53,344 nt of DNA from the IMG/VR virus record IMGVR_UViG_3300030329_003045, positions 1-53,344 of that record. The stretch is one strand, 5' to 3'. This DNA is from a virus. Its lineage: Duplodnaviria; Caudoviricetes. The position numbers were made by a program, and so were the translations under genes. The number at the start of each line of letters is the position of its first letter. Positions within the stretch are counted from its first letter, which is position 1. A model generated the notes under the pieces. The model was not told the origin of the DNA. It was given only the letters and a program-made list of their open reading frames with translations, and did not search any database. This document shows positions 3,007 to 35,101 of this stretch, in pieces.

Positions 3007-3016
3007 AAAAACTGAC

Positions 3017-3292: not shown

Positions 3293-3294
3293 TA

Positions 3295-3773: not shown

Positions 3774-3774
3774 T

Positions 3775-3954: not shown

Positions 3955-3962
3955 GAGGCCTT

Positions 3963-4181: not shown

Positions 4182-4200
4182 ATAAGTAAATGAATAACTT

Positions 4201-4285: not shown

Positions 4286-4302
4286 TTAACCTTGGAGGGT
4301 AT

Positions 4303-5972: not shown

Positions 5973-6919
5973 TGGAAGTTTATATAGATAAAGAATGTTG
6001 GGATAAGATAATAAATTATGCCAAAGCTGCTTATCATACTGAAAAGTGTGAAATAGGCGGTATGTCAGTAGTAACACAAGATAAAGATGGTGATTGGCTT
6101 ATTCAAGAGCCTGTAATACTAAAACAGGAGATAGGGAGCACTACTTGTGACCTAGATAAAGAGGAATTAGCTAAATATTACACTAAAATGGCTGTAAAAT
6201 ACAATGAAACCAACTTTAGATTCTGTTGGTGGCATAGTCATCACACAATGGGAGCATTTTGGAGTGGTACAGACATATCAAGTATAGATGAATATGGTGA
6301 AGGAGAGTCAGATTTAAGCTTTGCTCTTGTAGTAAACCTTAAAGAAGAGTATAAATGCAGAGTTTCTGTATGGAAACCAGTAGAAATTCATCAAGATGTT
6401 GAACTAAAGATACTTAGTGATAAGCCTGATGTAGAAATACCACTTGATATAGTTACTGAAGTTAAAGAAAAGTGTGAAACTAGATCAATAGTTAATACTG
6501 GATACTCTAAAACTCAAAATGGCAACACAACTTTGCCTTTATGGGACAATACTCGTAATAATTGGGCTAGTTATAAGATGCTAGAAGATGATTTAACCAA
6601 TGTATATGTCCCTAGTCAGCAAGAAATAGCTAATTTTGAGGCTAAATATGAGTATGCATGTATGAAAGCTCAAGAATTTCTACATCAAGTAACAGTTGGT
6701 GGCTGGTCTATGCATAAATTCAAGAAAGCAATCAGAGAAACTAACAAACAAATAGCAAAATATGGTGTTCAAATAGAAGAATTGAACAAAAGAGAGCTAA
6801 AAGAGTTCGTAGAAATGGAGTCAGCTCCATATGAACTTGTAGCTTCTGATGCTAAATTCGCTGATATTGCTGATGCAATGATGGAAATGCACAGTTATAA
6901 TGGAGGATACATGATATGA
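5972..6919 (+). CDS. JAB/MPN+ (JAMM) metalloprotease (Ubl-processing/deconjugating)
   Basis: E(IGG)...WWHSHHTMGAFWSGTD fits HxH-x7-S-x2-D. Confidence 0.9.
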   Translation: MEVYIDKECWDKIINYAKAAYHTEKCEIGGMSVVTQDKDGDWLIQEPVILKQEIGSTTCDLDKEELAKYYTKMAVKYNETNFRFCWWHSHHTMGAFWSGTDISSIDEYGEGESDLSFALVVNLKEEYKCRVSVWKPVEIHQDVELKILSDKPDVEIPLDIVTEVKEKCETRSIVNTGYSKTQNGNTTLPLWDNTRNNWASYKMLEDDLTNVYVPSQQEIANFEAKYEYACMKAQEFLHQVTVGGWSMHKFKKAIRETNKQIAKYGVQIEELNKRELKEFVEMESAPYELVASDAKFADIADAMMEMHSYNGGYMI

Positions 6920-7569
6920 TTAACTTAAGAAGTCAAGACATTGCAAATTTAGATAATGTTGAATTCCATATTGTAGGTTGCGGGGCTATTGGAAGCTCCG
7001 TGGCCATGCAATTAGTAAGATTGGGAGCAAATAACTTCTATTTGTATGATTTTGATAAAGTAGAAATACAAAATGTAGGTGTAAGCCAATACAATGAACA
7101 AGATGTAGGGCTGCCTAAAGTAGGTGCTTTAATAAATCATATGAAAAGAATAAATGTGTTGATAAAAGTTCAAGGATATATGTCTAAATTTACAAATTAT
7201 AGAGGTAGTAAAGAAGGTATATTGATTCTAGGTTTAGATAGTATGAAAGCTAGAAAAGATATAGTTGAATTGCTAGTAAATTGCCCTGATAAGCCTAAAA
7301 TAGTAATTGATGGCAGGATGGGAGCTGAACATTATCAGCAATACATATATGATAACATAACTATGGCTAAATATGAGAAAAATTGGTATTCTGATGAGGA
7401 ATCTGATCAAGAACCATGTACTCGTAAAGCTACAAGTTACTGTTCAAATATGAGTGGTAGTTTTATAGCAAACGCTGCAAAGAATATCGTTATGAAACAG
7501 CCATATTTTAAAGAAATTAGTTTCAACTTTTCAACATTAATACTTGATAAAAAGAAATTAGTTTCGTAA
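6916..7569 (+). CDS. E1-like ThiF/MoeB-family adenylating enzyme
   Basis: VGCGAIG, DFDKVEIQNV, GLDSMKAR, IDGRMG and putative catalytic Cys in EPCT. Confidence 0.92.
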   Translation: MINLRSQDIANLDNVEFHIVGCGAIGSSVAMQLVRLGANNFYLYDFDKVEIQNVGVSQYNEQDVGLPKVGALINHMKRINVLIKVQGYMSKFTNYRGSKEGILILGLDSMKARKDIVELLVNCPDKPKIVIDGRMGAEHYQQYIYDNITMAKYEKNWYSDEESDQEPCTRKATSYCSNMSGSFIANAAKNIVMKQPYFKEISFNFSTLILDKKKLVS

Positions 7570-12456: not shown

Positions 12457-12674
12457 TGAAAAGAGGGTTTACTCTAAGTAAAGATTATATGTGTGCATTC
12501 CTGTACCCATTTGGAATAGAAATTTTAATAGAAGATGGTATTACAATAGCGATACTATTTTATAAATTTGAATTTAGTATGTATATAGGTAAAAATTTCA
12601 CTATATTTGGTGACATTATAGAAAAGGCTTTAAAAGCAAGAGCCAAAATAAAATCAAACGAAATTAAAAATTAA
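12456..12674 (+). CDS. Hypothetical protein (last gene of the + arm)
   Basis: TAATG-coupled; converges on the - arm. Confidence 0.6.
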   Translation: MKRGFTLSKDYMCAFLYPFGIEILIEDGITIAILFYKFEFSMYIGKNFTIFGDIIEKALKARAKIKSNEIKN

Positions 12675-15400
12675 CGCTTTTGGGATAAGCCTTGTAGTAA
12701 ATTAAGTGAAGCTTCAAGGCTTGTATCCATGTATTTACCACCAGTTTTCTTCTTTTTCTTACTTTCAGGTTTTCCAAATATCATCTCATGATAATGTTTA
12801 GTAGTTTTAGTTGGGTAGAATTTAAACCAATGAGTTAATAGATCTCTACCTCTACCATCTCTTATTGCTGGATATAATTTATTTGACCATTGTCCCCAAA
12901 ATGTAGAATATTGATAAGCACTATACATTTCTGTATGCCTATCATCTTCATCTGCAAAGTTTACATTACCAAATAAGACTTTATTTAAATCATTATTTTC
13001 TATATCAATAACTCCACCTGCTACCATAAGATGCTTTAAAGTACCAAGGTTAGTACCACTTATCTGAGATAACAACCCAAATGTACCTTTATCTGGATTA
13101 TCATATTCAGTTAAATCATCTATAGTTCTTTGTACCCTTTCTACTGTATCATGTTCAAATATATTGAATAGATCTGTGTTAGTTAAGATACTCACTAAAG
13201 AAACTATACCAGCTATACCAGCATATCTTGTAAGATGCATTATTTCTTGAGACTCGAAACCTTCACCTGCTAAAAAGGCTTTATGAGCACCTTTTAACGT
13301 GGAATAAGTAGATTCAGCAAGAGACATAGGGTAATGCATTAAGTGCATCATCATTTCAGATGTTGCTCCTGCTGCCGATGTTCTTCTGTAATTAATTGAA
13401 CCTTGGTCCATCTCATCTATTGTACGCCATTCTCCTCTAACTGCTTTCGCCTTTCCATGAGCAGCATACTCATAAGCCCAAGAGTTAACTGTTTGTAGTG
13501 CAAATCTTTTAGCAAATTCACCAGCTTTATCTTGAGAGTAACCTCTATTTACAAGATATTTATACTTCTGATGTAAAGCAACACGATACATCCACTTACG
13601 TTGGTTGTTTTCAGTTAATCTATGAAAAAATAAAAGCTTATCTAGTGTGAACTGTCCTTTATCAATCAACCATTGTTTTAGTTTACCATTACCTTTCATA
13701 AACTCACCAGTTTCAGGATTATACCTTACTTCACCACTTTCAAGTTCAGTTCTACCAATTAATCCTTCAGAATATAATTCTCTAGCAGCATCAGTAAATA
13801 AGAAACCAGCTTCTTTTTCTGTCCTTCTAACTAAATCCTTAAATTCTACATCATGAGCAAAATCATGTAAAGTATTTTTTAATGCACCTAATCCTACCCT
13901 ACTATAAAAGTGTAGAGCACTAGCAGCATTTTTTACTGCACCAGTTATATTTAAACCCATAGTTCTTGCTGTTTGCAATGCGTTCATAGTCATAACTACA
14001 TTATTAGCCCAATCTCCTCTTGCACCAGTACCTCTAGTAAATACTGCAAACTCTTCATCAATAAATCTTCTTAATCCTTTTTGAAATTCCATAGTAGAAT
14101 TTGGTAAATGTTTTAAAGCCTCTAAGTAATTCTTCTGAGTGTGAACCATTTTATTAAAGTTAGTAGCTTGATGCCCATATTCTGATATAACTAAGAATGG
14201 ATCCTTTTCCCATATACGACCAAGTTCTATACCTCTCTTTTTCACAGAATCTGGAAGTTTACTAGGAGATATTTCAGAAAGAATATTATCTACTAAATCA
14301 CCAACAGCAAGATCTTTGTTTCCAGAAAAAGAGTTTGCTGCTTCATTTAATTTACCTTTAATTGTGGCTATAGTAGCAAAAGAAAGATGAGGAAAGTATC
14401 CACCTTCTTTCATTCCCATTTTGATATCTTTAATTGTATCATCTAAAGTTTTAATAAACTTACCAGCCTCACTACTTAGTCTTGATGCAACTTTTGGATC
14501 TGACGTACCAGCATACTTCAGTCCAACAATATCCTTTAATGTTGTTATACCTTGAACATATACTTGCCCCATATCATCTAATATAATTCTAGCTTTTTTA
14601 ACAGCTTCTACTACATTACTATTATAAGTTACTTTCTGATTATAGTTAGGATTTTCTGTTGTACCATCTACAAGAAATTTATTAGGGTCTCTAAAGTCTT
14701 TATCGTATATTTTACCGAAAGTCTTTTTATCCATATGAATTAAATCTATAAATTGCTTTATTGTTATACCTTCTGCATCTCTTTCAATAAATTTCTCCAT
14801 TGCTGAAATAAAATCACTCGTAGCTAATTCATTCTCAGGATTCTCTAACATTTGTTTTCTTAAATCTTTTATATGTCTTATTGCTTTATTTCCAGCTCTT
14901 CTGTCTCCATAAGTTCCAGCTGTGTTTTCACTTATGTAAGCTTCTAACATGTGATTTGCAATTTCAGCATTTCTGGTTGATATATTATTTACATTAACAC
15001 GCTCAACATTAAGTATATCATTTAATCTTGTATAAAATTTTCTAGCAATAGGGTCTTGTTTCGAGATTCCCTCAGGCACAACCCATGCTAAATTAGAAAA
15101 CTTACCACTTAGTGCCTTATCAAAAGCATCAATTTCAACCTTTATTCTGTTAATGTTCTTTTTAGTGAAAACATTATAAGCATCCTGATTATAAGGAAGT
15201 TCTAATCTTTGTTCTATAAACCATCTTAAATTCTGTTTAGCAGATTCAGCATCAAAACCATTATACTTATCAGAAAATCTCTCTACTATACCTACTCTTT
15301 CTTGACCATGCTTATTAAATAGCCAGTAGTTCCAGATATCATCTTGAGTTCTCATCCATTCATCTTTGGTTCTGCCTACAGTATTACATAAAACAGCCAT
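12671..15400 (-). CDS. Large putative internal virion (ejection) protein
   Basis: 909 aa, helical; last gene of the structural operon after the giant protein. Confidence 0.6.
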   Translation of the reverse strand: MAVLCNTVGRTKDEWMRTQDDIWNYWLFNKHGQERVGIVERFSDKYNGFDAESAKQNLRWFIEQRLELPYNQDAYNVFTKKNINRIKVEIDAFDKALSGKFSNLAWVVPEGISKQDPIARKFYTRLNDILNVERVNVNNISTRNAEIANHMLEAYISENTAGTYGDRRAGNKAIRHIKDLRKQMLENPENELATSDFISAMEKFIERDAEGITIKQFIDLIHMDKKTFGKIYDKDFRDPNKFLVDGTTENPNYNQKVTYNSNVVEAVKKARIILDDMGQVYVQGITTLKDIVGLKYAGTSDPKVASRLSSEAGKFIKTLDDTIKDIKMGMKEGGYFPHLSFATIATIKGKLNEAANSFSGNKDLAVGDLVDNILSEISPSKLPDSVKKRGIELGRIWEKDPFLVISEYGHQATNFNKMVHTQKNYLEALKHLPNSTMEFQKGLRRFIDEEFAVFTRGTGARGDWANNVVMTMNALQTARTMGLNITGAVKNAASALHFYSRVGLGALKNTLHDFAHDVEFKDLVRRTEKEAGFLFTDAARELYSEGLIGRTELESGEVRYNPETGEFMKGNGKLKQWLIDKGQFTLDKLLFFHRLTENNQRKWMYRVALHQKYKYLVNRGYSQDKAGEFAKRFALQTVNSWAYEYAAHGKAKAVRGEWRTIDEMDQGSINYRRTSAAGATSEMMMHLMHYPMSLAESTYSTLKGAHKAFLAGEGFESQEIMHLTRYAGIAGIVSLVSILTNTDLFNIFEHDTVERVQRTIDDLTEYDNPDKGTFGLLSQISGTNLGTLKHLMVAGGVIDIENNDLNKVLFGNVNFADEDDRHTEMYSAYQYSTFWGQWSNKLYPAIRDGRGRDLLTHWFKFYPTKTTKHYHEMIFGKPESKKKKKTGGKYMDTSLEASLNLLQGLSQKR

Positions 15401-15409: not shown

Positions 15410-18400
15410 CTAACAAATTTTTCCTCCTGATTCAATATCATGATACCTATCTCTTAAATCAGCAGGTTTTGTATGTCTATTAATAACCCTACCTTTGACC
15501 GTTGGAACGGACGTATTATCTGGGCCTTTCTCTAAAACAACTCTATTTCTAGTAGTATTTGTCCTTTTATCTAATTGCATATCCAATAAAGTAGATGAAT
15601 AGAATATATCTAAATATCTAGATAAGGATTTTACTGGATTAGCAAGTTCTCCTAAATTTTTATAATCAATACCAATAGTTTGTGAACTTTCCCATTCAGG
15701 AACATTAGGTTTCTTCTTGCCAGTAAAGGCAAGTTGAACTTGTTTCATCAATCTTTTAGCAAACCCAGCATCACCTCCATAATCAGTCTCAATAATTCTT
15801 TCATTATTTAAAGTCCAATTCAAAATAGTCTTCTGCAAATGTAAATCAGTTTTAAATGTAGGAATATATTGATTGTCTTTACCTATAGCATAACTCTCTA
15901 CTAATTGAGGTTGTAGTAAATATCTTAAAATCAAATCAACAGGATCAATATTTGTGTGTACTTGTGGGACCCATTTATCTAAGAAGTTCTTAATATCTAT
16001 ACCTTCTCTTAAAGCCTGCATCTCATAAATATCTTTACTTAAAACCCTATTAGTTAGAGACTCTTTTATTGCGCCTCTATACCCTGTACTTATTTTGAAT
16101 CTTAAGGCTCTTGCATCAGCTGTAAATTGTACCCAATTATCCATATGAGCGCTCGGAGACATAACCTCATCTCTGGTTACTTCAAATAAAGCTCTACTCC
16201 ATCTCATTTCATTTTCACTAAGATTAACCATTTTTTTAGGTCTAGTATCTATAATATAAGTCATCCCTTTATGTGTACGAATATTATCCCTTATATTACT
16301 CTTAGTATAATAACCTAAGAACTTAAGTTGATTATGCGATATATAATTCTCATCAGTTTTTCCGTGATTTAGATTACCTTCTTTACCTTCTTTATTAAGT
16401 TTGTTTATCTCAGTAACATCTACATCGCCTTTTATTGCATATATTGCAACCCTATCTCTCTTTGCTGCCTTTAAAACATTTTTAATTTTAATCTGACCAT
16501 TCTTCTTTCCAACAATAATTTGATTTTTAGGGTCTCTGATAACCATATCTCTAGCTAGCTGAACATCCATTATATCCATAGCTTGTTTTAAATTGGCTAA
16601 TCTATGTTGAAGTTTTTGTATCTTATTAGGATTTGCAAATGGTTCATTCATAAAATAATCAAATGAATTAATAACGTCATCGTGCTGTTTTTCGAGCAAG
16701 TTTCTTAATATACCATTATTCATTTGTTTCCTATACCTTTTTGGATCTGTCTGGCCAAAAGATTTTAAATTCAAAGCAAATTCATATTCTCCAGTAGCTG
16801 TTCTTCCTGTTAATATTTCAACAGGATCTTGTCCAAAGGCTCTAATAACTTCTACAAAATTCTCAATTCTATCAACAAAAATTCCAGCCTTTTGAAAATT
16901 CTTACCATTATCTAAACTTCTTAATCCTTCAAAATTAGTAGTAAACCAAGCTTTATTTTGATTTAAATCATAAATAGTTCTACCGCCTATAGACATAAAG
17001 AAAGGATTATTATCTGTTTTATCAGATAAAGCATCAATAGTAGGGACATTTTCAAATCTAAATCTTATTTTACCTAAAGTAACTGGTTCTCCAGTATATA
17101 TTTTTCTATATATCTGCTTTCTTGTAGCCTCATTTTTTACAAAATCCATATAATCTTTACCATAAAACATATCAACATACTCACTAAGCATCAAATCAGC
17201 TTCAGCTTTCTTACCTATGGTTCTATAGTAACTAATTCTATTCATCATTCTTTTACTTAAATATCTTGTAGGATTTAAAAAGAACTCAGACATCCTTCCA
17301 TATATATCTTTTATCTCTCTAGCTTCAGGATTTCTACTACCTGCTTCATCATATACGTCATTTTGGACCATATTTGCCTTTTTTAGCAACCTTACTACCT
17401 CAAAGAACATCTCCTTCTCTAATGTATTATTCTTTCCAAAATTAGGGTGATCTTTACCAAAAACGTTTACATCATCTACCGCATATTTATTAAATATATC
17501 GTCAGTTTCTCCTCTTTTCTTTAATTGCTGAGCTTTGTCTTTGTAATTTTTAGGGGTTCCAAAGAATAAAAAGTCCATTAAATCTGCCTGAGCTCTCATT
17601 ATTCTATGAATACCGCCATGAATATCTACAGAATTCTGCATAGTATCATAAAATTTACTTAACCATTTCCATTCAGGACTATCCAAGGACAATTTATCCT
17701 CATTAGAAAATTTCTTTAAAAGGTCCTTACCATCTAATTGCATTCCTAACTTATCAAGCCAAGATAATGCGTTCCTTATACCAACAACTTGACCTATAGC
17801 CATTTTTGCTTGAGATAATTTACTAGCATAACTGTGAAAACCAACATCAGTAGCTATTTCACCAGCTTTTCCACCATCTCCTATACCAAATATATTTATA
17901 TAATTTTCTTGACCAATAACATCTTGAACATCAAACATTCTGAAATCATCTTTCTTTCCATTCTGTCTAGCAAAAGCTTTTAATATTCCTTCTGGAAGTT
18001 TTTGATGCATATAAAAATGGTCACCATCATTATCACGTTGTAAAACAGTACGTAAATCATGCACATTTATTTCAGCTAAACCATTCATTTGTTTTAATAC
18101 TTTTCCTACTCTTAATATAACCTTATCATGTCCTAGAGCTGGTATAGCATGTCCTAACATACCAAAAGCTAACTTTAATTCTTGAGCATCTGTTATAGCC
18201 CTTTTTGTTAATTTTACTACTTTACCATTTTTTGTTATTGTATTTCCATCCATCAATCGAATAACATCAGAGTAATTTAATCCGTGTTTTTGTACCTTTT
18301 TATTAATCTCATTTAAAGTAACCTCAATACGTTTCTGCCTAGACTTGAAAGATTTAGAATCCATATTATAACCTTTTTTAAATAAATCACCCTCATATTT

Positions 18401-21400
18401 CTTACTACCAGTTGCACCATCCCAAGTCTCTATATCATGCCCTTTGTGCATTTTTATATGGTCATAAAATGGACTTTCATAAATAAACTTATTACCGTTC
18501 CATCTAACGATAACATCAATTCCATTATGGTCTCTAAATATAAAGGTCTCATCAACAATATTAGATACTCCATCATGTTTACCTAAAAGTCTTCTACTTT
18601 GATTTCTATTTATAGATGTCTCTCCATACTGTATAGTAGTTCTATTTTTATTAAATCTATCAATATGCCCTGCACGCATTTCTGTAAACTTAGCAAAAAT
18701 TGGAACAGCAAGATCAGAATTTACATTAGGAACTATAAAATTATCCTCTCCACCACGAACATGAGCTTGTTTTAAATCCTTATAATTCTGACTTCTCATT
18801 AATCTCTTTATTGCAGGCATTATTATAGGACTAGAAGGGCTAACACCGTACTCAAATACAAGCCTAGCTAAACCTTGATCTCCTAAGTTAAGTGGATTTC
18901 CTTCTGCTTCATTTATCCCATACAACCACTTAGTATAACCTCCAGGATCTTGTTCTATACCGCCCCATTCATTAGCTATTTGAAGAAACTTGTCTTGAAA
19001 TTTCATCCATTGCATTGCTTCTTTCATAACTGTTGGACTTTGAAAATCAAATATAGAAGGAGATATTACTCCTCCTTTAGCATTTTTAGATACAAATGAT
19101 ATGCCTATAGATTTAATAGGTATAATCATTCTATTTTGATCTTGAGCCATATGTAGTCTATCAAGACCTTTAGAAACATCGGTAGGTTTTAAATCTCTAT
19201 TAGTTATAGGTGTTTTACCAGTAAATGATTTAGCAGATTCAGAACCAATAATAATATCAGCTCCTTTAGGCATATATTGCGCTATATCTGGATGGTATAT
19301 TAGAAAACCTTTACCTAACATTTGATTATCTCCAGTAGCAAATATAATAGTTTTTGCACCATTAGGTTTATTTAAGAAATTATCAATATTTTCACCCTTA
19401 TGAGCCATAACAAGCCTCATAAAGTCTAAAGAAGCAAATTTAGCGCCATCAAATAATGAATTATCTAAGCTTTTTAAATTCTGTAAGTTTTCTTGATTTT
19501 GTAATAAAACACCTTGTAATATTTTATTCTGAACTTTATTTACATTTTTTGCAATCTGCGCATTTACATCGCTAATTTTTGACTCAATTTGTCTTTGAGT
19601 TATACCTTGAATATTTAATGGATGATTAATATCTCCCTTAACAGTTGACTCATCAAACACAACAGTGTCATGACCATCTTGTTTTAAAGCCTTTAAAGCA
19701 GCATCTCTAACCTTTTTATTGGGATGGCCCATAACACGTGCAAGTTTAGTTCCTGGAATATTTTCTGTAGATACTATCCAATTTAGAACTCTTTTACTCA
19801 TAGGTTGAGTAGTACCACCATCTGTTAGGTTTCCTCTTTTAAATATATTCATCTGTATTTTCTGAAGATTAGCTTTATCTCCAGCAGTCCAATCGCCTAG
19901 AAATTGATCAAACCCTTGTCTACCACCTTGAATATCAATATAAGGTAACATTAATTTTAGTTCAACTAAATGTCTAGCCCCAACATCTTCTGGTTTAGTC
20001 TTATCTCTTAATTGTCCAAATATATTCCTAAAGTTATCAAGCTCTTTATTTTTATTAGCATCTTTCAATCTTTTCTCAGTAGCTACAAACCAACTCTCAA
20101 AATCATTATTTAAATTCTCAATATTTTCTTTGGTTCTCGCAAATAAAACTCTATTTTTAGGTGATACTCTAACATAATAAAAGAAATCTTTAATATTTTC
20201 TTGCTTCAATAAAGAGGCAACTTCACTTTCAGATAACTCATAAGTCTCTGCTAATTTTCTTAATACCTCTTTATTAGCAGCAGATTCTCTTATAGAATTA
20301 TTTATAATCTTTTGAACTTCAACAGGATTTGATATTAACTGATCAAGACTTCCTGATCTTAATTTGCCTGCTATCTCAACATTAATACCATCGTCTAAAT
20401 AAATTACTTTTAATTTCTTATCACCAAAATAAGTTCTACCTGGATAAGTCACTGATGGAGTATCGTTATTAAATAAAGTTATAGCTCTTTTACCTTCACC
20501 ATAACCTATTATTTTAACTGTAGGTACAGATTGTTGATTCTCTATATAACTTAATATTTCTATTGCATGTCTCTCTTTGAACTGTCTATATAGTGCTACT
20601 CTTTCACTAGATGAAAGTGGTTGACCATTGCTATCGGTTCTCTGATTAATATGGTTAAGTATATAATCATTAAATGCTTTTACATCATCAGCTAATAAGG
20701 CTGCTTTGAACCCTTCATCTATTTTATTCTTTTTATCAACTAATCCGTACTCTCTTAAAACCTCAATAGGAGTCTTATGTCTTTCATGCATAGCCCTACC
20801 TTCATCTTGAGATTTTCTAATTAAAGACATTTCCTCATTTAATACATGGTCAGGATTATTTAATATAACTCTTTTATTAATTTCTTTATTTATTTCCTTA
20901 AATAATTCAACTGCCTCTCCAAATAATCCTCTTTCATTAACTTGTTCTATAACCTCAGATAACGATCTTTTTTGCTTATTAACGTCCTTAGTAAATAAAA
21001 CATTCCAATTATTTACAAGTTTATCCATAACAGCCTGAAAATCATTCTCTCCTAACCCATAACCTGCTTTACCCTCTAAAGCTAGATTTTCTATTTTTAC
21101 AATCAAATTATTTAGATGATTTAATCCTTGATATTCTCTTTTAAATATATCTGCAACTCTATTTTGTAGTGGCTCTAATATAGCTTCACGAACTCCCCAT
21201 CTATCTCCTTCTTGATCAAATTTATCCCTTTGTTCTTGAGTTAGGAGCTTCTTAATAGGATAAGTCCATTTAGATGTTTGTTTGCTAATATTACTCTTTA
21301 ATTCATTTAAAGTAATAATCATTTCATCAACATCTTTTTCAGTAGCGGTTCTATCTTTACCTTCAGCATTTGGTCTTTTAGCAGCTTTAGAAAAAGCATC

Positions 21401-24400
21401 TAATTCAGCAATTATAGATTCTATCTCCTTTATAGGATCTTTAACAGTTACCTCTTTTTCAGGATCTAATGAGTCTATAATATTGGTTATTTTAGCTTGA
21501 ATTGAGTTTAACTTAGCAGGAGCACCTCCATCAAGATTATATGCCTTTTCTAGTGCCGTTTTAGCCTTTCCCATAAGGTCCATAAGAGCATCATTACCTA
21601 AAAATTTATATACTCTCGCATAATCTTGTATATCAATACCTTCTGTAAGTAATGTTCCATCATCATGAACAGGTATTATATCAGTCTCTTTAACAGTATC
21701 TCCAAGAACATCTTTTAAAGATTTTCTACCTTTTAACATAAGTTGTATTTCTCCTTGAGAAAATCCTTCATCTAAAAGATATTGCTTTAAAGCTTCTTCT
21801 GATGGAATCTGAAACTTTCCATCTCTAAGAACACCTAATCTTTTACTTTGCGCATAATGAGCAGCTTTAAGGGCTCTTGAATCTAACCCTATATTATGAT
21901 ATATTCTATCTAAGTAAGCTTCACCTACTTTACCTTTAAAGTCAGCTTGAAATTCACGTGGCAATGCTTTAAATAAAGATATAAAAGAATCATTAGCAAC
22001 CTGAAGATCTGCTCTTTCAATCTTTCTATTAGGAGATTTTGTAGTTTGTCCTCCTAAATGTACTTTTCTTAAGTCAAATAGAGGCTTTAAAGTATGCAAT
22101 ATTAAGTCAGCTTCTTCTTTTACTTTACTTTCAGGAGTACCTTCTTTTGCGTCTCTAACATATTCTTCGATAACTCTTTTATATTCATTTATATCAGCAT
22201 GATACTTACCATCTATCATAAATATTTTATCAAGAAGTGTAGTTAAATCTTTATCTTTTACATTCTTTGATTTACCAGTAATAATATCAAACAATCTTTC
22301 ATTAGTAGCTACAGCCTTAGCTCCAGTATAAAACTTCATAAATTGATTACTATCAGGCATAATAAACTTACCTTTATTAGCAAAAGTTAATGAAAGTTCG
22401 CTCATATTTTTCTCTATAACTTCAGACACTCTAGCTTTTAACTGCTCAACATCCATATTATTTGCCTTAGCAATCCATTCCATAGTTCTTTCTGCCTTTA
22501 CTCCTGGCTGTATACGTGAAGCATCACCGTTGTTACGAAAAATATCTAAAACTCTATTTATATTATGTATCATGCCAAGATCAACACCATCTTCACCAAC
22601 AGATCTTGTTTCTGCATAAGTAATTTTACCATCTGAAGATACACTAATGTCAAATCCTAATTCATTTAATTCTGCAAACATCCTTTTATAAAGATTCATA
22701 GCTTTATTTAAAGGTTCTCCAGTCATTCTAATCATAGCATGAAACCATGCATCTGTACCTTTTTGACCTAAGGTCTGAATTTCCCCTGTACCCTTATCAA
22801 CACCTATAGATATTTCTCTAATATTGTTAGCAATTTTATTTATAGTTCCCTCAGATAGGAATAAAATACGGTCACTTAAAGATTTCGCATCTGGATTCTT
22901 TGTGATATTCATAATATCATACATATCAGCAAATTGTTGAACTAGTTTTAAATCAGGATTGTCAGCGCTATGCTTTCCAGTTGGATTTTTCTCTCCACCC
23001 TCTAAACCCTTATCAAAAGCGGTTAGTATTTTTTGACCTGTTTCAGAACCTGCTAGATGTTCACCTGTAGCAAATCCCTCTCCGTCCTTCCATTGCTTGA
23101 ATCTGAACAACATTTTTGCTCCATCGGCATCTACCCCTAGAATACGCATTGCCTCTGTATATGGCTTAAAATCAGCGAAATACTGCCTTTTATTCTTATG
23201 CCCCCATGCACCTCTACCTTTAACCATCATAAATGACATCATCATATGTGCACCAAGTTCTGAACTATCCATGTCACTCCAGGCATTTTTATCTAATACC
23301 CAAGGATTCATTACAAGAGTACCTGCAGCCATTCTTGGAAGAGACTTTCCTAAATCTGCTAAGTACTTTGGACCCCATTTACCAAGCATTTCACTAGAAA
23401 CTTGCTTATTTATCTTATTTAAAAGAACTTTAGTATGTTCAACATTCATTGTTCCGTTCTTTATTCTAGCTAATATATCATCAGCACCTTTATAAATTTC
23501 TTTTGTTTTACCTTTTCCTACAGTCCACCATGCTGTTCCTAGTTTATTTGAATTCCATACTGATCTTTTGCCTGAAGGAGATACCATTAATCTTAATAGG
23601 TTATTAACAACATCATCTCCATGTTCTGCTTGAATCTTACCATAATCTATATTTTTATATCTACCAAAATAAGCTTTAAATCCTGTAGTTAGATTATCAT
23701 TACCACCTCCAGGAAGAAGTCTAATTAAAGGAAAAGCTAAAGCCATTTTACCTGAATGGCTTAATGTCTCCATAGGGTCAAAATGTTCTCCATAAGCGTG
23801 AGATTTTACAGCACCAGAAATCAATCCATGAGCAGTCATCATAGCCATATCTTGAGTAGCCATACCTAGATATTTTGTTACACCACTTCTAACTCTACCA
23901 GGAGCAGCGCCACCTAACGCTCTTGCAGTCCACTCAGCAATATCATCTACATAATGTCCTGCAGCTAAATCATCAACCCATCTTCCAGCTAAATTAGTAG
24001 CATCTAGTTTAGTTAATTCAATTCCATGCTCTTTGAAAGCTCTAGAGATTGCACTTCCACCAGTACCTACTAAATTTTCTTTAGCCTCATCTAAAGCTCT
24101 ACCTTGGCTACGTAAATTCTTAATCCAACCAACGGTTAAATCATTTTTTGAAGTTTTTTGTATAGCAGCATAAACATCATCTCCAAACCCTTTAATTGCA
24201 TCATCTACAGATATACCTTTTGCTTTAGCAATTTCTTCTGCTTTTTCGATAATTCTATTAGCGGTTGGAGCGTCAAAGTTTTTAGTTATAGATTTTCTAG
24301 TTATATTATCAGCAACATCTTTAGCAGCTTTACCAACAAATTTATTCGCACCTAATCTAGTAACAGCTCTTCCAGCTCTAGCCATTTGACCAAATGCACC

Positions 24401-24703
24401 AAAGGGTAGAAATAACCCTAAACCTTCACCCATGATCATTCCAGCTCTCTCAGCGCCAGACTTCTCTTCCCAAGGAGTATCAGCATAAGGATTAATAAAA
24501 TCAGAAACTCCCCAAGTAACAGCAGAAGCTGCGCCCCAAAGAGTTGAACCTAGAAAGTCTAGTAAAGACCCAGAATCTCTCTCAATAGTATCAAAACTAA
24601 AAGCCCCTTCAGGAACATAACTGCCTGCATAGGGGTTAGTGTATAAATTAGGTCTTGTACTATTTGGAGAGGCTATATTATAGAAATCTCTTGATATTGC
24701 CAT
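15410..24703 (-). CDS. Giant virion protein, putative double-psi-beta-barrel RNA polymerase
   Basis: 3097 aa; LQRDNDGDHFY (DxDGD, nt 18020-18034) preceded by a HAIP..IL.V...GLAEI segment; upstream FDGA and GAKT...GKG motifs; located in the ejection-protein module. Confidence 0.65.
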   Translation of the reverse strand: MAISRDFYNIASPNSTRPNLYTNPYAGSYVPEGAFSFDTIERDSGSLLDFLGSTLWGAASAVTWGVSDFINPYADTPWEEKSGAERAGMIMGEGLGLFLPFGAFGQMARAGRAVTRLGANKFVGKAAKDVADNITRKSITKNFDAPTANRIIEKAEEIAKAKGISVDDAIKGFGDDVYAAIQKTSKNDLTVGWIKNLRSQGRALDEAKENLVGTGGSAISRAFKEHGIELTKLDATNLAGRWVDDLAAGHYVDDIAEWTARALGGAAPGRVRSGVTKYLGMATQDMAMMTAHGLISGAVKSHAYGEHFDPMETLSHSGKMALAFPLIRLLPGGGNDNLTTGFKAYFGRYKNIDYGKIQAEHGDDVVNNLLRLMVSPSGKRSVWNSNKLGTAWWTVGKGKTKEIYKGADDILARIKNGTMNVEHTKVLLNKINKQVSSEMLGKWGPKYLADLGKSLPRMAAGTLVMNPWVLDKNAWSDMDSSELGAHMMMSFMMVKGRGAWGHKNKRQYFADFKPYTEAMRILGVDADGAKMLFRFKQWKDGEGFATGEHLAGSETGQKILTAFDKGLEGGEKNPTGKHSADNPDLKLVQQFADMYDIMNITKNPDAKSLSDRILFLSEGTINKIANNIREISIGVDKGTGEIQTLGQKGTDAWFHAMIRMTGEPLNKAMNLYKRMFAELNELGFDISVSSDGKITYAETRSVGEDGVDLGMIHNINRVLDIFRNNGDASRIQPGVKAERTMEWIAKANNMDVEQLKARVSEVIEKNMSELSLTFANKGKFIMPDSNQFMKFYTGAKAVATNERLFDIITGKSKNVKDKDLTTLLDKIFMIDGKYHADINEYKRVIEEYVRDAKEGTPESKVKEEADLILHTLKPLFDLRKVHLGGQTTKSPNRKIERADLQVANDSFISLFKALPREFQADFKGKVGEAYLDRIYHNIGLDSRALKAAHYAQSKRLGVLRDGKFQIPSEEALKQYLLDEGFSQGEIQLMLKGRKSLKDVLGDTVKETDIIPVHDDGTLLTEGIDIQDYARVYKFLGNDALMDLMGKAKTALEKAYNLDGGAPAKLNSIQAKITNIIDSLDPEKEVTVKDPIKEIESIIAELDAFSKAAKRPNAEGKDRTATEKDVDEMIITLNELKSNISKQTSKWTYPIKKLLTQEQRDKFDQEGDRWGVREAILEPLQNRVADIFKREYQGLNHLNNLIVKIENLALEGKAGYGLGENDFQAVMDKLVNNWNVLFTKDVNKQKRSLSEVIEQVNERGLFGEAVELFKEINKEINKRVILNNPDHVLNEEMSLIRKSQDEGRAMHERHKTPIEVLREYGLVDKKNKIDEGFKAALLADDVKAFNDYILNHINQRTDSNGQPLSSSERVALYRQFKERHAIEILSYIENQQSVPTVKIIGYGEGKRAITLFNNDTPSVTYPGRTYFGDKKLKVIYLDDGINVEIAGKLRSGSLDQLISNPVEVQKIINNSIRESAANKEVLRKLAETYELSESEVASLLKQENIKDFFYYVRVSPKNRVLFARTKENIENLNNDFESWFVATEKRLKDANKNKELDNFRNIFGQLRDKTKPEDVGARHLVELKLMLPYIDIQGGRQGFDQFLGDWTAGDKANLQKIQMNIFKRGNLTDGGTTQPMSKRVLNWIVSTENIPGTKLARVMGHPNKKVRDAALKALKQDGHDTVVFDESTVKGDINHPLNIQGITQRQIESKISDVNAQIAKNVNKVQNKILQGVLLQNQENLQNLKSLDNSLFDGAKFASLDFMRLVMAHKGENIDNFLNKPNGAKTIIFATGDNQMLGKGFLIYHPDIAQYMPKGADIIIGSESAKSFTGKTPITNRDLKPTDVSKGLDRLHMAQDQNRMIIPIKSIGISFVSKNAKGGVISPSIFDFQSPTVMKEAMQWMKFQDKFLQIANEWGGIEQDPGGYTKWLYGINEAEGNPLNLGDQGLARLVFEYGVSPSSPIIMPAIKRLMRSQNYKDLKQAHVRGGEDNFIVPNVNSDLAVPIFAKFTEMRAGHIDRFNKNRTTIQYGETSINRNQSRRLLGKHDGVSNIVDETFIFRDHNGIDVIVRWNGNKFIYESPFYDHIKMHKGHDIETWDGATGSKKYEGDLFKKGYNMDSKSFKSRQKRIEVTLNEINKKVQKHGLNYSDVIRLMDGNTITKNGKVVKLTKRAITDAQELKLAFGMLGHAIPALGHDKVILRVGKVLKQMNGLAEINVHDLRTVLQRDNDGDHFYMHQKLPEGILKAFARQNGKKDDFRMFDVQDVIGQENYINIFGIGDGGKAGEIATDVGFHSYASKLSQAKMAIGQVVGIRNALSWLDKLGMQLDGKDLLKKFSNEDKLSLDSPEWKWLSKFYDTMQNSVDIHGGIHRIMRAQADLMDFLFFGTPKNYKDKAQQLKKRGETDDIFNKYAVDDVNVFGKDHPNFGKNNTLEKEMFFEVVRLLKKANMVQNDVYDEAGSRNPEAREIKDIYGRMSEFFLNPTRYLSKRMMNRISYYRTIGKKAEADLMLSEYVDMFYGKDYMDFVKNEATRKQIYRKIYTGEPVTLGKIRFRFENVPTIDALSDKTDNNPFFMSIGGRTIYDLNQNKAWFTTNFEGLRSLDNGKNFQKAGIFVDRIENFVEVIRAFGQDPVEILTGRTATGEYEFALNLKSFGQTDPKRYRKQMNNGILRNLLEKQHDDVINSFDYFMNEPFANPNKIQKLQHRLANLKQAMDIMDVQLARDMVIRDPKNQIIVGKKNGQIKIKNVLKAAKRDRVAIYAIKGDVDVTEINKLNKEGKEGNLNHGKTDENYISHNQLKFLGYYTKSNIRDNIRTHKGMTYIIDTRPKKMVNLSENEMRWSRALFEVTRDEVMSPSAHMDNWVQFTADARALRFKISTGYRGAIKESLTNRVLSKDIYEMQALREGIDIKNFLDKWVPQVHTNIDPVDLILRYLLQPQLVESYAIGKDNQYIPTFKTDLHLQKTILNWTLNNERIIETDYGGDAGFAKRLMKQVQLAFTGKKKPNVPEWESSQTIGIDYKNLGELANPVKSLSRYLDIFYSSTLLDMQLDKRTNTTRNRVVLEKGPDNTSVPTVKGRVINRHTKPADLRDRYHDIESGGKIC

Positions 24704-24721: not shown

Positions 24722-27097
24722 TTATTTTGTAAACCCATGAATAAAGGGTGGTTCATCACCTTCAAAACTTTGAATATGTAAAGTAGCATTAGGGTCATGA
24801 AAGCCACTAACACTGTTTCTCCCTATCCCTCTATAAACATTTAATTCATTAGTACCTTGATTTGCGTTTGGAATAAAATCAGTCCCATGCTCTATATTAG
24901 CATTTTCAATTATATCTAACGAATTTAATAATGCTCTAAACTTATGTGGATTATCATCACTATTTTCAATAATCTCTTTCATGTATTCAATTTGAGCAGC
25001 TTTTGCTTTACCATCAGCTATTCTATGAGCGTTTTCATAATAACCAGGAGCATCATATTTTACTTCATACCATTGTAACAATCCACCAACTCTTTGTTCA
25101 TCAATATTTTGAGAACCCTTTCCTGCTTTTATTGCATGGTTTGCATCTAATAATGCATCCATTTGAAGTTCCATCTCTTCATTATAAACGTCCCAATATT
25201 CGCTTTCGCCCGTTTTATTATAATAGCTAACACCATATGCATTTGCAGCGCTCCATCCAGGTATTTTACTATGGTCATAATGGATACCTTCAACAAGCCC
25301 CATCCAATGACTTGCATTAAAGGCTGATTCTAACTCCCTTTGGTATCGCGCAGGATCTGTATCCTTTAAGTATGAATATTGAAGAACCCAATCTCGCATA
25401 ACCGTGTCATCACTATTCAACATATAATCCTCTAAGGTTTCATAACCTCCTGGAGGAGTATTACCCCATCCTTTAACACCATAGATACCTTTATGATTCA
25501 TACTAGGAGTATCATTAAAATACATAAAATTCCCTGTATCATATATATCAGTAGCTATTTGGTAATATGGGTCATCGCCAAATTCATTTATCTGATCAGT
25601 CATTACTTCATGAGCGTCATCCCATTGCCAATAAATAGATTCTTGAGGAACAACAAAATCATCGCCATGTATTTTAATCTGATCTAAACTTTCATAAATT
25701 TTATTTACATCAATATAAACTGTTTCTCCATCATCTGTTTTATAAGATGCTACTACATCTATAGAATCTGCACCTGGAAATTTTACATTATCAGAAATAC
25801 TATCTGATGTATAAAGAGCAAAAGGACCGTCATATGGATTTATAGAACTCGCAAGAATTTTTTCAACCTTATTACTACCAGTAACTCCAAGATTAGCAAC
25901 ACCTGAATAAATATCCTGTGCTTCTTCAATAGTAATATTGTATTGATTAGCAATAAATTCCATCATTTCGTCAGCTTGAGTATAGCCTATACCTTGGTCA
26001 AATTTAGTTTTCATAACATACATAGCATCTTCTATAGTTTTATCTGAACTATTAGCATAATCTCTTATTGTATCTTTAAATGCTGCAGATTCATCAGTTA
26101 AGGAAAGTCCTTCAGCTTCAGCTTTTAGTTTAAATATCTTATCATAATTAATTTCCATAGTATTAAACAAATTATATGTAAACTGATTCTCTCTAAGCAT
26201 TTTTAATAACTGTTCACCTTGATCACCAGGAAGGCTATAAAGTTTTTTTAATGCACTCTCAGGGTCATTAACTAAGAATAAGGTTGACATTTGACTAAAT
26301 ACATTTTCTGGAATTCCATAAGCTTCTGATTTCTCTGATAAGCTTTGACCATCTGTGTCTTCATCAGTTGTAAACATTGTTTTTAATGTAGTAAAATCTG
26401 CTTTAAAGTTTACATCAAGTCTAGCTACCTGTTTATCAATAGCAGACATCTCAAGAGTTCTAAGCTCAACATCTGAACCTTCCTCTCTATAAGCTGCCTC
26501 AATACCTGCAGTTCCAATGCCAGGATATTTTTCATCCCAACCTAATCCTTCTACTTCTGCAGTCTTAGGGTCATCAGCTGTCATAGCATATTCTTTTAAT
26601 CTTTCAAATTCATCAGGATTTAAATATTGGCTTAAACCAAAGAAAGGTTGGCCTGTTATAGGGTCAATCATTGTTTTCATTTTATTTAATTGAATTTCTT
26701 GACCTTGAAGATCTCTATATAATTTATCAGCAGCCTTTCGTCTATCATCGTACACCTGTGTGCTTTGATTTATTTTATCTATATCAAATTTTTTACCTTC
26801 ATATAAGTCTGTAACGAGTGCTTGACCTGTACTAGTTAACTCTTCTGCGTTTATACCCTTATATCTTGAACTCACTTTTTCTAAACTTGTTTGATACTCT
26901 TGTTTTGCCTCTCTATTTAAAGCCCATAATATCTCTGCATGCTTCTGTGCTTCTGCAGATGCAATTCTTGCATCATCTTGTTTTGCTTGTAATTCTGCTA
27001 TTCTGAATTGAACATCTGTAGCATGTGCTTGGGAAAGCCCTTCTGATATAATTGATAATGCACCTAATGCTATTTGAACATCGTCTGATTTAGCCAC
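24722..27097 (-). CDS. Putative internal virion protein
   Basis: 791 aa, N-terminal coiled coil, ejection module position. Confidence 0.55.
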   Translation of the reverse strand: MAKSDDVQIALGALSIISEGLSQAHATDVQFRIAELQAKQDDARIASAEAQKHAEILWALNREAKQEYQTSLEKVSSRYKGINAEELTSTGQALVTDLYEGKKFDIDKINQSTQVYDDRRKAADKLYRDLQGQEIQLNKMKTMIDPITGQPFFGLSQYLNPDEFERLKEYAMTADDPKTAEVEGLGWDEKYPGIGTAGIEAAYREEGSDVELRTLEMSAIDKQVARLDVNFKADFTTLKTMFTTDEDTDGQSLSEKSEAYGIPENVFSQMSTLFLVNDPESALKKLYSLPGDQGEQLLKMLRENQFTYNLFNTMEINYDKIFKLKAEAEGLSLTDESAAFKDTIRDYANSSDKTIEDAMYVMKTKFDQGIGYTQADEMMEFIANQYNITIEEAQDIYSGVANLGVTGSNKVEKILASSINPYDGPFALYTSDSISDNVKFPGADSIDVVASYKTDDGETVYIDVNKIYESLDQIKIHGDDFVVPQESIYWQWDDAHEVMTDQINEFGDDPYYQIATDIYDTGNFMYFNDTPSMNHKGIYGVKGWGNTPPGGYETLEDYMLNSDDTVMRDWVLQYSYLKDTDPARYQRELESAFNASHWMGLVEGIHYDHSKIPGWSAANAYGVSYYNKTGESEYWDVYNEEMELQMDALLDANHAIKAGKGSQNIDEQRVGGLLQWYEVKYDAPGYYENAHRIADGKAKAAQIEYMKEIIENSDDNPHKFRALLNSLDIIENANIEHGTDFIPNANQGTNELNVYRGIGRNSVSGFHDPNATLHIQSFEGDEPPFIHGFTK

Positions 27098-27890
27098 CTG
27101 TTCCTCCTATAGAAAGATCTAACTCATTGTATAATTCTTGTGGACGTTCATAAGGTTCGCCTGCTGCTGTCCCATATGTAGAAAGAAGATCATTTACTTG
27201 GTTTCTTAAACTCATTGCAAGGTCTGCTTTATCCTTATTTAATTGAGTTGTTTTAGCCATAGCATCTTGTATTAATTGATTCTGTTGTAAAGATTGAACT
27301 CTTCCAGATGCGCCAGAAGTGGCCATACCCACCTGTTTTTGTAAATTCTGTGAAGTTTGCTGAAAGTTCATTTGAGAGCCTAAAGTTTGATTTATATTTA
27401 AATCTCTTGTTTTATCAAAATATCCGCCTGGAGAAAAAGCTGCTTGAGCAGTTTCTGTAATTCCTTCCATACCTAATTCTAAAGCCTCTGAAGCACGATT
27501 TATATTAGCATACTCTGTTCCTTTACCAAATAGAGATCCAACAATTCCATGTTTACCAAAATGGGTATCCCAAAATCTCGCAGGATCTATTTCTGGGCCT
27601 CCAGCCCATTCCGAAATATCCGATAATATATCTATAGGCCCAGGTGCATTACCTGCAAGAGTATCTTCTAACCATGATGAAAATAAACTATATTCTCTCA
27701 TTCCTGTATTAGGATTAATTGTTCCTGAACCAATGTTTTGAACAACATTTTCACCTTTTGTACCATAGTTATCTATTAAATATGCTTCAAAAACATTAAC
27801 ATGAGAAGGTTCGCCTTTAACTGTCCTAACAGCAGTATCTTCGTATCTACCTTTACTACTTATATTCTCTGTATTATAAAAATTATTCAT
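27090..27890 (-). CDS. Putative internal virion/ejection protein
   Basis: GRYEDT...HVN..EA...GSGTINPNTGMREY motif of podovirus-like internal proteins; Gln-rich C-terminus. Confidence 0.65.
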   Translation of the reverse strand: MNNFYNTENISSKGRYEDTAVRTVKGEPSHVNVFEAYLIDNYGTKGENVVQNIGSGTINPNTGMREYSLFSSWLEDTLAGNAPGPIDILSDISEWAGGPEIDPARFWDTHFGKHGIVGSLFGKGTEYANINRASEALELGMEGITETAQAAFSPGGYFDKTRDLNINQTLGSQMNFQQTSQNLQKQVGMATSGASGRVQSLQQNQLIQDAMAKTTQLNKDKADLAMSLRNQVNDLLSTYGTAAGEPYERPQELYNELDLSIGGTGG

Positions 27891-28561
27891 TATCTAAAAA
27901 GATTCTTCCCTAAACCAATCCCAGCTGACCATAAAGCCCAGGCTGGATTTAAAAGTGAACCAATACCTAAAGCTGTTTGAGCCATAGTAGCTGCTTTATA
28001 TGCATCTGATTTTTTAGCGAAGCTTTTTTTATCTCCCAACATTTCGTAGCCTCCTGAAATACCTGAAAGTGCTCCTGATAATGGAGAACTTAAACCTTCT
28101 TTTACTCCACCCAATAAATCTTTCATTTTTGCACCCATTCCAACAGCTGGGTCTGGAGTTGTATATGATTTATATTTTGTTAATAATTCCATTTCAGGCT
28201 GAGTAATCGTTCCAGCTTTCTGTAATTCTTCTAATCTCGTTACTTCACTAAGCATCCCTTGAGTAGGTTCAACCATATCTCTACTTTTAGCAAAAAATTT
28301 CCCAGGATCATGCCAAGGTTTATCTATATGCTCAGCACTAGTTTGAAAAACCTTCTCACCATCAGCACCAAATTCTAAGTCTTTTAATTCTTTAGCACCT
28401 ATTTGCTGTTCAGATTTATAACTTTTTATACCTGTAGGAACAAGCTGAGCTGCATATCCTATAGTTTCAGATCTTTGTTGAGCTCTTTCTTGTCTTTCCC
28501 TTGCTATCTCTTCCATTATACGCTTGGCATCTGAATAGCCGTACATTTTATCAATATCCAT
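27890..28561 (-). CDS. Putative ejection protein with Gly/Ala-rich hydrophobic C-terminus
   Basis: ALGIGSLLNPAWALWSAGIGLG; first gene after the putative promoter. Confidence 0.55.
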   Translation of the reverse strand: MDIDKMYGYSDAKRIMEEIARERQERAQQRSETIGYAAQLVPTGIKSYKSEQQIGAKELKDLEFGADGEKVFQTSAEHIDKPWHDPGKFFAKSRDMVEPTQGMLSEVTRLEELQKAGTITQPEMELLTKYKSYTTPDPAVGMGAKMKDLLGGVKEGLSSPLSGALSGISGGYEMLGDKKSFAKKSDAYKAATMAQTALGIGSLLNPAWALWSAGIGLGKNLFR

Positions 28562-33258: not shown

Positions 33259-33461
33259 TATTTTTCTCCTTTTTTATAATTACACTTAAATTCTTTAGGT
33301 GGATGAGACACTTTTTCTAATAAATTAAGGCGCTCCTCCAAATTCTTTACTTTTTCATCTAACTCATTATCATCAAAAACATAACTCATAATCTTATCTA
33401 ACTTAAAGTGTTTAGTTAGAGAGTTAGCAACTTGATTTATTAACATTTTAGGAATTATCAT
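33258..33461 (-). CDS. Hypothetical protein
   Basis: Coupled ORF. Confidence 0.65.
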   Translation of the reverse strand: MIIPKMLINQVANSLTKHFKLDKIMSYVFDDNELDEKVKNLEERLNLLEKVSHPPKEFKCNYKKGEK

Positions 33462-34840: not shown

Positions 34841-34844
34841 TTTA

Positions 34845-35093: not shown

Positions 35094-35101
35094 TATAACT
35101 C

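Follow-up and report, generated by a model that had tools for sequence, protein, structure and literature searches.

A giant gene in the structural operon of a small marine podovirus-like phage encodes a predicted single-chain two-barrel RNA polymerase with a lone terminal cysteine

We have analyzed a record of an uncultured marine phage (Duplodnaviria; Caudoviricetes; IMG/VR IMGVR_UViG_3300030329_003045), a stretch of 53,344 bases referred to here at its full length as the window, and describe in it a 3097-amino-acid (aa) product, the giant protein, that is predicted to be a single-chain two-barrel RNA polymerase (RNAP). The genome is 99% complete by CheckV estimate, and its ends are classed as linear. 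A single long minus-strand operon starts at the small terminase gene, ends at position 12671, and continues after the small terminase with the large terminase, an endolysin, a P22-type portal, an SU10-type capsid protein and a string of unrecognised virion-size genes. The giant open reading frame (ORF) is the second-last gene of this tight structural operon, which it shares with the terminase, portal, capsid and tail genes. An earlier interpretation made from the letters alone (the sequence-only reading) had put the protein forward as a candidate divergent virion RNAP with a DxDGD motif. Coordinates are collected in Table 1.

The motif from which that proposal started, RDNDGD near residue 2224, lies at residues 2223-2228 and is the sole match to D.D.D or D.DGD in the protein. 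Its surroundings had been likened to the catalytic double-psi beta-barrel (DPBB), and the order of elements holds both in an AlphaFold2 (AF2) model and in a comparison with Escherichia coli beta' 417-475. The bacterial segment runs through a strand, an R-A-P-T-L-H loop, two strands, a short helix, N-A-D-F-D-G-D, a Q-M-A-V-H strand and a helix; the giant protein runs through a strand, an H-A-I-P-A-L-G-H loop, two strands, a short helix, Q-R-D-N-D-G-D, an H-F-Y-M-H strand and a helix. HAIP occupies residues 2186-2189, and the distance from P2188 to D2224 is 36 residues, compared with 33 in E. coli beta' (P427-D460) and about 37 in gp66, the virion RNAP (vRNAP) of phi14:2, a crAss-like Cellulophaga phage. 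Further upstream, FDG is found at 1751-1753, 473 aa before the Asp loop (the sequence-only reading had estimated about 450), and is followed by Lys-bearing strands with K1784 in NGAKT, K1798 in LGKG and K1825 in SAK. Two-barrel polymerases are reported to use three Asp of the second barrel together with one Asp and two lysines of the first; the first-barrel residues given are K979 and K987 in Rpb2 and D709, K743 and K767 in QDE-1, which has Gln/Arg in place of one barrel lysine (PMC9508822). The predicted first barrel of the giant protein carries basic and acidic residues of the same kind, a correspondence in kind and not a lysine-to-lysine pairing with Rpb2 or QDE-1. The motif and its context are far more than chance.

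A family of relatives allowed these residues to be followed. A word-seeded search returned 28 proteins of 2957-3099 aa, that of the window included, and a HMMER scan of 1.84 billion representatives returned 86 at E<=1e-3, 63 at E<=1e-10 and 30 at E<=1e-30. Full-length homologues range from 2849 to 3132 aa. An alignment-based scan located relatives in 35 viral loci on contigs of up to 50-62 kb, with a completeness estimate of 95-100% for five of them; a scan of viral contigs with the single sequence gave no close relative. No family member carries a functional name in any source searched. Loss of the Asp triad, like the lack of a predicted double-psi barrel, had been set beforehand as a result that would refute the polymerase proposal. 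Both checks turned out in its favour, and all three Asp are kept in 68 of the 68 members that cover the site. The loop reads DNDGD in 40 of these, DYDGD in seven, DHDGD in six, DFDVD in four, DFDGD in three, and DLDGD and DFDAD in two each, with DWDGD, DGDGD, DMDGD and DYDAD occurring once. In a 63-row alignment, Q2222, D2224, D2226, D2228, P2188 and D2193 are present in all 62 covering rows and Gly at motif position 4 in 55 of the 62. The first-barrel lysines are likewise invariant (K1784 51/51, K1798 51/51, K1825 52/52), and residue 1752 is D in 47 and N in seven of 54 rows. The catalytic Asp, Q2222, P2188 and the three barrel lysines remain invariant down to about 20% identity, which we take, at the level of sequence, as the signature of a working active site. 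The loops of the family span the cellular DFDGD, the QDE-1-type DYDGD and the crAss-like DFD[IV]D forms, and because Gly at position 4 is conserved, the loop is more cell-like than the crAss DFDxD. The motif had also been called non-standard; the window does read DNDGD, but position 2 is simply variable in the family, where DFDGD and DYDGD occur as well.

The fold of aa 1620-2720 was predicted with AF2, template-free and from a 38-row alignment of the family only, giving a mean predicted local distance difference test score (pLDDT) of 81.0 and a predicted template-modelling score (pTM) of 0.82. Comparison with gp66 and QDE-1 by AlphaFold and Foldseek, the check proposed at the outset, yielded a two-barrel fold: in the PDB, phi14:2 gp66 (6vr4_A) ranked first (E 6.4e-6), followed by maize RDR2 (9.5e-5) and QDE-1 (1.9e-4 to 6.3e-4), and all five matches at E<=1e-3 are two-barrel RNAPs. 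Weaker rows comprise P23-45-type gp64, the largest subunits of Pol I, II and III, and archaeal and poxvirus RNAPs. VIA-align, run on Foldseek's list, scored QDE-1 at Z 15.1 (444 residues, root-mean-square deviation (rmsd) 6.4 A), maize RDR2 at 15.1 (424 residues, 6.0 A), gp66 at 11.6 (570 residues, 5.2 A; model 2-970 on gp66 878-1821), P23-45 gp96 at 11.1 (300 residues, 4.0 A), the gp64 type at 10.9 (393 residues, 5.0 A) and beta'/Rpb1-type chains at about 8.5 (131-277 residues, 3.3-6.6 A). A scan of 48,161 representative chains that was independent of Foldseek placed six single-chain two-barrel RNAPs on top (Z 14.9 to 9.3); below them came unrelated helical hairpins (Z <=8.9) that match only the last 65 model residues. 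In BFVD, two proteins of the protein's own family were matched (E 3.7e-22 and 2.6e-19), and the remaining named matches are crAss-like phage polymerase proteins. In the model the Lys-bearing strands (aa 1782-1828) precede the Asp loop in one chain, as in single-chain two-barrel RNAPs. The first-barrel strands fall at model residues 163-170, 175-183, 198-201 and 206-209, and in the second barrel a strand leads into the HAIPALG loop, two strands and a short helix come before the DNDGD loop, and a further strand and a helix follow it. Helix 2289-2319 shows a Y-x-x-K-L ... V-G-I pattern in register with the gp66 bridge helix, the limits of which are given as 1529-1559 (bioRxiv 10.1101/2020.03.07.982082); the correspondence is one of sequence pattern, not of residue superposition.

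Table 1. Features of the giant gene and of other parts of the window (positions are those of the 53,344-base stretch)
Feature	Positions	Strand	Basis or remark
Giant ORF, 3097 aa	15410-24703	-	open from ATG; stop TAG at 15410-15412
N-terminal region, aa 1-1619	19847-24703	-	almost wholly alpha-helical; no recognised fold
Predicted two-barrel RNA polymerase core, aa 1620-2594	16922-19846	-	model residues 1-975, aligned to QDE-1, RDR2 and gp66
Predicted first barrel (beta-like, DPBB-B/DPBB1), aa 1745-1830	19214-19471	-	D1752, K1784, K1798, K1825
Predicted second barrel core (beta'-like, DPBB-A/DPBB2), aa 2179-2247	17963-18169	-	secondary structure of model
Predicted Mg-binding loop D2224-N-D2226-G-D2228	18020-18034	-	motif and family conservation
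Candidate bridge helix, 31 residues, aa 2289-2319	17747-17839	-	conserved; gp66-like pattern
C-terminal region, aa 2721-3097, ending ...GGKIC	15413-16543	-	sequence
Codon of C3097, sole cysteine and last residue	15413-15415	-	sequence
Downstream gene, 909 aa, no known family	12671-15400	-	sole Cys is residue 5 (MAVLCN; codon 15386-15388)
Small terminase	51225-51956	-	start of the operon
Nine other ORFs without any Cys	24722-28561, 33458-36457, 43330-44238, 49835-51232	-	791, 266, 223, 460, 451, 302, 161, 144 and 158 aa
Metallo-phosphoesterase	36753-37523	-	PHROG 221, E 2.4e-20
Plus-strand arm	about 4.2-12.7 kb	+	ERF, primase-helicase, RusA-like resolvase, JAB/ThiF pair
Four-gene run	4270-7569	+	466 aa and 100 aa (family unknown), Prok-JAB (5972-6919), ThiF/E1-like (6916-7569)
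GOLLD RNA, full length	1467-1882	+	Rfam RF02032, 168.4 bits (gathering 150), E 1.4e-45, model 1-416
Candidate tRNA-Stop, 95 nt	1050-1144	+	ARAGORN prediction; anticodon tta
Diverged copies of one ~330-350-nt unit	1-328 and 52993-53344		ends of the record

The part of the protein outside the core is mostly non-catalytic and helical, amounting to about 2000-2100 of the 3097 residues. An AF2 model of aa 1-1200 is almost all helix (pLDDT 71.6, pTM 0.46); in BFVD it matched only first segments of its own family, and in the PDB it gave matches at the level of four-helix bundles only (Z <=11.4, at aa 1025-1148). One Gly-rich hydrophobic segment is present in the N-terminal region, at aa 87-105.

Among known enzymes, gp66 is the closest in architecture. 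Its injection and its role in early transcription have been reported from experiment (bioRxiv 10.1101/2020.03.07.982082; PDB 6VR4). Both proteins are single chains with the Lys barrel first and the Asp barrel second, both are giant proteins encoded among virion genes beside other large proteins, and gp66 gives the longest structural alignment (570 residues). They further share the sequence pattern of the candidate bridge helix and have cysteines at chain ends only, and four distant members of the giant-protein family read DFDVD, like crAss DFDID. The two nevertheless differ in several respects. The giant protein has 3097 aa with 1619 before the core, whereas gp66 has 2180 with about 880 before it; the loop of the giant protein, DNDGD, has Gly at position 4 as in cellular enzymes, whereas that of gp66 is DFDID, so that the DFDxD with a non-Gly fourth residue by which crAss-like enzymes are recognised is absent; and the giant protein has one Cys, at the C-end only, compared with two terminal Cys in gp66. 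The phages differ as well, this one having 53 kb, a P22-type portal and an SU10-type capsid, as opposed to about 100 kb and crass-type structural genes in crassviruses. In a comparison with the ORFs in the first 75,000 of the 100,418 bases of phi14:2, no protein of the window gave a match. The gp66 family comprises gp66 and 661 relatives, and gp66 homologues occur in 125 phage records, the hosts of which, where named, are Bacteroides, Flavobacterium and Cellulophaga only.

The highest structural scores belong to QDE-1 of Neurospora and the plant RDR2 (Z 15.1 over 424-463 residues; PDB 2J7N, 7Y7R and 7W82). QDE-1 also shares Gly at motif position 4, its DYDGD at D1007-D1011 having the same form as in seven members of the giant-protein family. 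These are, however, eukaryotic RNA-silencing enzymes of about 1000-1400 aa with no virion context, and their identity to the giant protein is only 11-13%. Thermus phage P23-45 is reported to have a tape-measure-fused virion RNAP, gp96, and a non-virion RNAP, gp64 (PMC10770324; PDB 8H2N, 8F72). Like the polymerase predicted here, gp96 is a phage RNAP of the single-chain two-barrel type that is joined to a large virion protein; its Z is 11.1, and that of gp64 is 10.9. P23-45, however, is a siphovirus in which this polymerase forms the N-end of a tape measure of 5002 aa, and it has a second, non-virion polymerase, whereas here the phage is podovirus-like, the core is central in the giant protein, and the 36 ORFs yielded no second polymerase. 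The vRNAPs N4 gp50 and DEV gp71 are described as proteins of about 3400-3500 aa with a mid-protein polymerase, helical ends for ejection and packaging, and suppressed cysteine (PMC11445570). The giant protein resembles them in size class, mid-protein polymerase, helical flanks and cysteine suppression, which by analogy suggests the same strategy. The N4 enzyme, in contrast, is a T7-like right-hand polymerase of unrelated fold and is reported to be without any cysteine, whereas the giant-protein family always keeps one at the C-end. With respect to a T7-like right-hand domain, the giant protein matched no Pfam polymerase family at E<=1, and its predicted fold is two-barrel.

Several results weigh against a polymerase. 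No link to a known RNAP emerged at the level of sequence. The giant protein matched nothing in Pfam (E<=1) or PHROGs, and the single sequence matched nothing in the PDB by phmmer; the family profile, run against the PDB, gave RPC1 at E 2.3 and otherwise just designed helical bundles, which matched aa ~1010-1100. No similarity to gp66 was detectable: tblastn in both directions and phmmer of gp66 against the giant-protein family returned nothing, and hhalign against gp66 and the gp66 family was not significant (probability 1.8% and 0.4%), as was also the case against E. coli beta' and beta. Global template-modelling scores are low (0.30/0.17 to gp66), rmsd values are mostly 5-6 A, identities are 10-13%, and characterised enzymes seldom have Asn at motif position 2. 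Finally, a search for early promoters through repeats and 11-mers (<=2 mismatches) in 51957-53344 plus 1-4270 yielded only AT-rich background. Though insignificant, the top local alignment by hhalign to the gp66 family places HAIPALG on YRIPNQG and DNDGD on DFDID. Three other searches added little: Pfam on 19 distant members gave only a sub-threshold RdRP_2 on member P0104 (15.6 bits against a cut-off of 27), the ESM Atlas search was uninformative (scores of 0.75), and hhalign of aa 1-1619, aa 2720-3097 and the 909-aa family against phi14:2 gp076, gp077 and gp078 gave no significant alignment.

Taking both sides together, the core of the giant protein, about aa 1620-2600, is very probably a two-barrel polymerase, as judged from the predicted fold, and the fuller statement, in which this polymerase is also delivered by the virion, is a probable one. 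The earlier proposal of a candidate virion RNAP is thus upheld in its polymerase part by the fold and the triad, while the term virion protein reflects gene position and not an observation. The giant protein is predicted to fold, and would work, like a single-chain two-barrel RNAP; it stands outside the gp66 sequence family, and belongs to a phage that is not a crassvirus. Its sequence family, new and unnamed, has a cell-type DxDGD loop and a fused architecture (3097 aa here), and adds an enzyme of known kind to a group of phages from which no example had been known.

Three other explanations of the protein deserve consideration. It could be an active two-barrel polymerase with another job, whether late intracellular, RNA-dependent, primer-making, or that of a PolD-like DNA polymerase. 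QDE-1 and RDR2, the nearest structures by Z, are reported to copy RNA as well as DNA (PMC9508822), no DNA polymerase is recognised among the 36 ORFs, and packaging of the giant protein is only deduced; but a gene at the end of a late operon, the product of which is free of Cys but for its last residue and is fused to helical regions, agrees with the vRNAPs that crAss-like and N4-like phages eject. An RNA-dependent polymerase, moreover, would have no evident use for a double-stranded DNA phage, and no PolD chain is among the 50 matches listed in the structural scans, which is a weak argument. We therefore regard another job as unlikely. It is quite improbable that the protein is an ejected or internal virion protein of polymerase descent that no longer polymerises, its barrels serving as a scaffold or DNA clamp in genome delivery: about 2100 of the 3097 residues are non-catalytic and helical and polymerase activity is a prediction, but the three Asp, Q2222, P2188 and the three lysines stay invariant to about 20% identity, and the most conserved blocks of the whole protein are 2201-2300 and 1901-2000. 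The idea that DxDGD arose by chance in a large structural protein has in its favour that short acidic motifs are common in proteins of 3000 residues and that no profile method detects a polymerase; it is hardly credible given a single such site that is invariant in the family and a scan of 48,161 chains that only two-barrel RNAPs top.

A virion-packed, ejected polymerase remains our preferred reading because of the late structural position of the gene, its being the only recognised polymerase, and its suppressed cysteine content. What the analysis itself shows is the predicted fold, its match to two-barrel RNAPs alone and the constancy of the catalytic residues; catalysis, the DNA template, packaging and ejection are what we infer. 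In the proposed mechanism, the beta-like barrel (K1784, K1798, K1825 and D1752) would face the beta'-like barrel, in which the D2224-x-D2226-G-D2228 loop would bind the catalytic Mg ions, and helix 2289-2319 would serve as bridge helix. The giant protein would be expressed late together with the structural genes, incorporated into the podovirus-like particle and driven into the host before or with the DNA, where it would transcribe the first phage genes. Because no other RNA polymerase is recognised among the 36 ORFs of at least 100 aa, later transcription would be left to the host enzyme. Nor is any sigma factor or DNA polymerase recognised among these ORFs.

The giant protein is free of cysteine but for its last residue. 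This makes one Cys in 3097 residues, whereas Cys accounts for 0.58% of residues in the other minus-strand genes (P about 3e-7) and for 1.42% in the plus-strand genes. Suppression of Cys is documented for ejected proteins of N4-like phages, the vRNAP included (PMC11445570). All 42 full-length relatives (>2800 aa) have exactly one Cys, which is the last residue in 28, the second-last in eight and the third-last in six; ten shorter members that reach the C-end also keep a Cys there, and member P0044 has a second, internal one. The downstream 909-aa protein shows the converse arrangement. A homologue of it lies next to the giant gene at 34 of the 35 related viral loci. Each of the 34 has exactly one Cys, which falls at residues 3-8 in those 26 distinct sequences that are full-length with a settable start Met (MGLCN, MALCN, MGCN and similar). 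Nine other minus-strand ORFs have no Cys at all, so that much of the virion gene set avoids the residue.

The same ordering is seen in the polymerase blocks of crAss-like phages. In phi14:2 (KC821624), gp078 (1797 aa) has one Cys, its last residue; gp077, the vRNAP known as gp66 (2180 aa), has C3 and C2179 only; and gp076 (1421 aa) has C3 only. In crAss001 (NC_049977), Gp47 has one Cys, third from the end, in the C-terminal 1966 aa examined, Gp50 (2412 aa) has C5, C1334 and C2404, and Gp49 (1349 aa) has C5 only. The order in these blocks is thus complementary: C-end, then N-end plus C-end, then N-end. Of 120 gp66-family members, 101 contain two cysteines and no more, one near either end at a distance of at most 8 residues, and most of the 19 exceptions carry one extra internal Cys or look truncated. 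No mention of terminal cysteines was found in the gp66 preprint, the final journal version and supplements being outside the search, or in Yutin 2021 (PMC7886860), and the crAss001 atlas (PMC10172136), in the portion of its text available, mentions disulfides only for the tail and portal vertex.

The terminal-Cys pattern is itself a firm observation. As a tentative explanation of it, less likely to be right than wrong, we suggest that the ejected polymerase-module proteins of phages with two-barrel vRNAPs may be tied head to tail by disulfides into one thread. Here C3097 of the giant protein would be linked to C5 of the 909-aa protein; the chain in phi14:2 would be gp078(C-end)-S-S-(C3)gp077/vRNAP(C2179)-S-S-(C3)gp076, and that in crAss001 would be Gp47(C-end)-(C5)Gp50(C2404)-(C5)Gp49. 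Such a chain could be pulled as a single string through the tail channel, after which the reducing cytoplasm would cut it and free the active polymerase. Oxidation in crAss-like virions is real, since disulfides between crAss001 tail proteins have been published (PMC10172136). Two other ideas about the junction of these genes were set aside. The giant and 909-aa ORFs share a frame in the window, but only 15 of 34 relatives have them so, the gaps ranging from -53 to +244 nt; the two are therefore not joined by stop read-through. Servicing of the terminal Cys by the phage JAB/E1-like pair, a ligation idea, was rejected; ThiF is present in only two of the five relatives that are at least 95% complete.

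Other features of the genome bear on its host and lineage. The strong Shine-Dalgarno use that had been noted from the sequence was borne out, with a Shine-Dalgarno-like motif upstream of 27 of the 36 ORFs. Shine-Dalgarno use is weak in Bacteroidota, and the two facts together point to a host outside that phylum. A tblastn search of aa 1201-3097 against 50,697 phage records gave no match, hence no cultured phage carrier was seen; no relative was found in 185,579 bacterial and archaeal species genomes, and so neither a prophage nor a clue to the host was obtained. The large terminase is only about 25% identical to that of any cultured phage, with N4 gp68-like terminases at that level. Despite the completeness estimate, the genome has no recognised DNA polymerase among its 36 ORFs, while a primase-helicase, ERF and a RusA-like resolvase are present. 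The metallo-phosphoesterase gene lies within the structural operon, and the structural block of phi14:2 likewise includes a metallophosphoesterase (gp086).

The gene-poor left arm holds the full-length GOLLD RNA and, about 320 nt upstream of it, the candidate tRNA-Stop, which would read UAA; the stop codon of the giant ORF is TAG. The copies at the two ends of the record are identical over their first 77 nt and about 80% identical over the remainder, with a 24-nt insertion, and may be either a real repeat or an overlap, mixed between strains, of a genome that is circular or terminally redundant. In the plus-strand four-gene run, the Prok-JAB and ThiF/E1-like proteins match CBASS-type JAB and E1-E2 models in PADLOC, and the run may be a phage-borne conjugation/deconjugation module, perhaps one of counter-defence.

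Experimental knowledge of virion-carried two-barrel RNAPs comes from Thermus phage P23-45 and from crAss-like phages of Bacteroidota. The family described here is separate from these and unrelated in sequence; its phages are small (50-62 kb), marine and podovirus-like and make use of Shine-Dalgarno sites. Carrying a cell-type polymerase along thus looks like a widespread phage strategy, hidden among giant genes labelled 'hypothetical'. The range of loops within the family is relevant to the proposal that phage vRNAPs share an origin with eukaryotic RNA-silencing polymerases. The terminal-Cys pattern is held in common with crassviruses despite undetectable sequence similarity, and it gives a concrete hypothesis of how several giant proteins may be ordered, threaded through a narrow tail and released.

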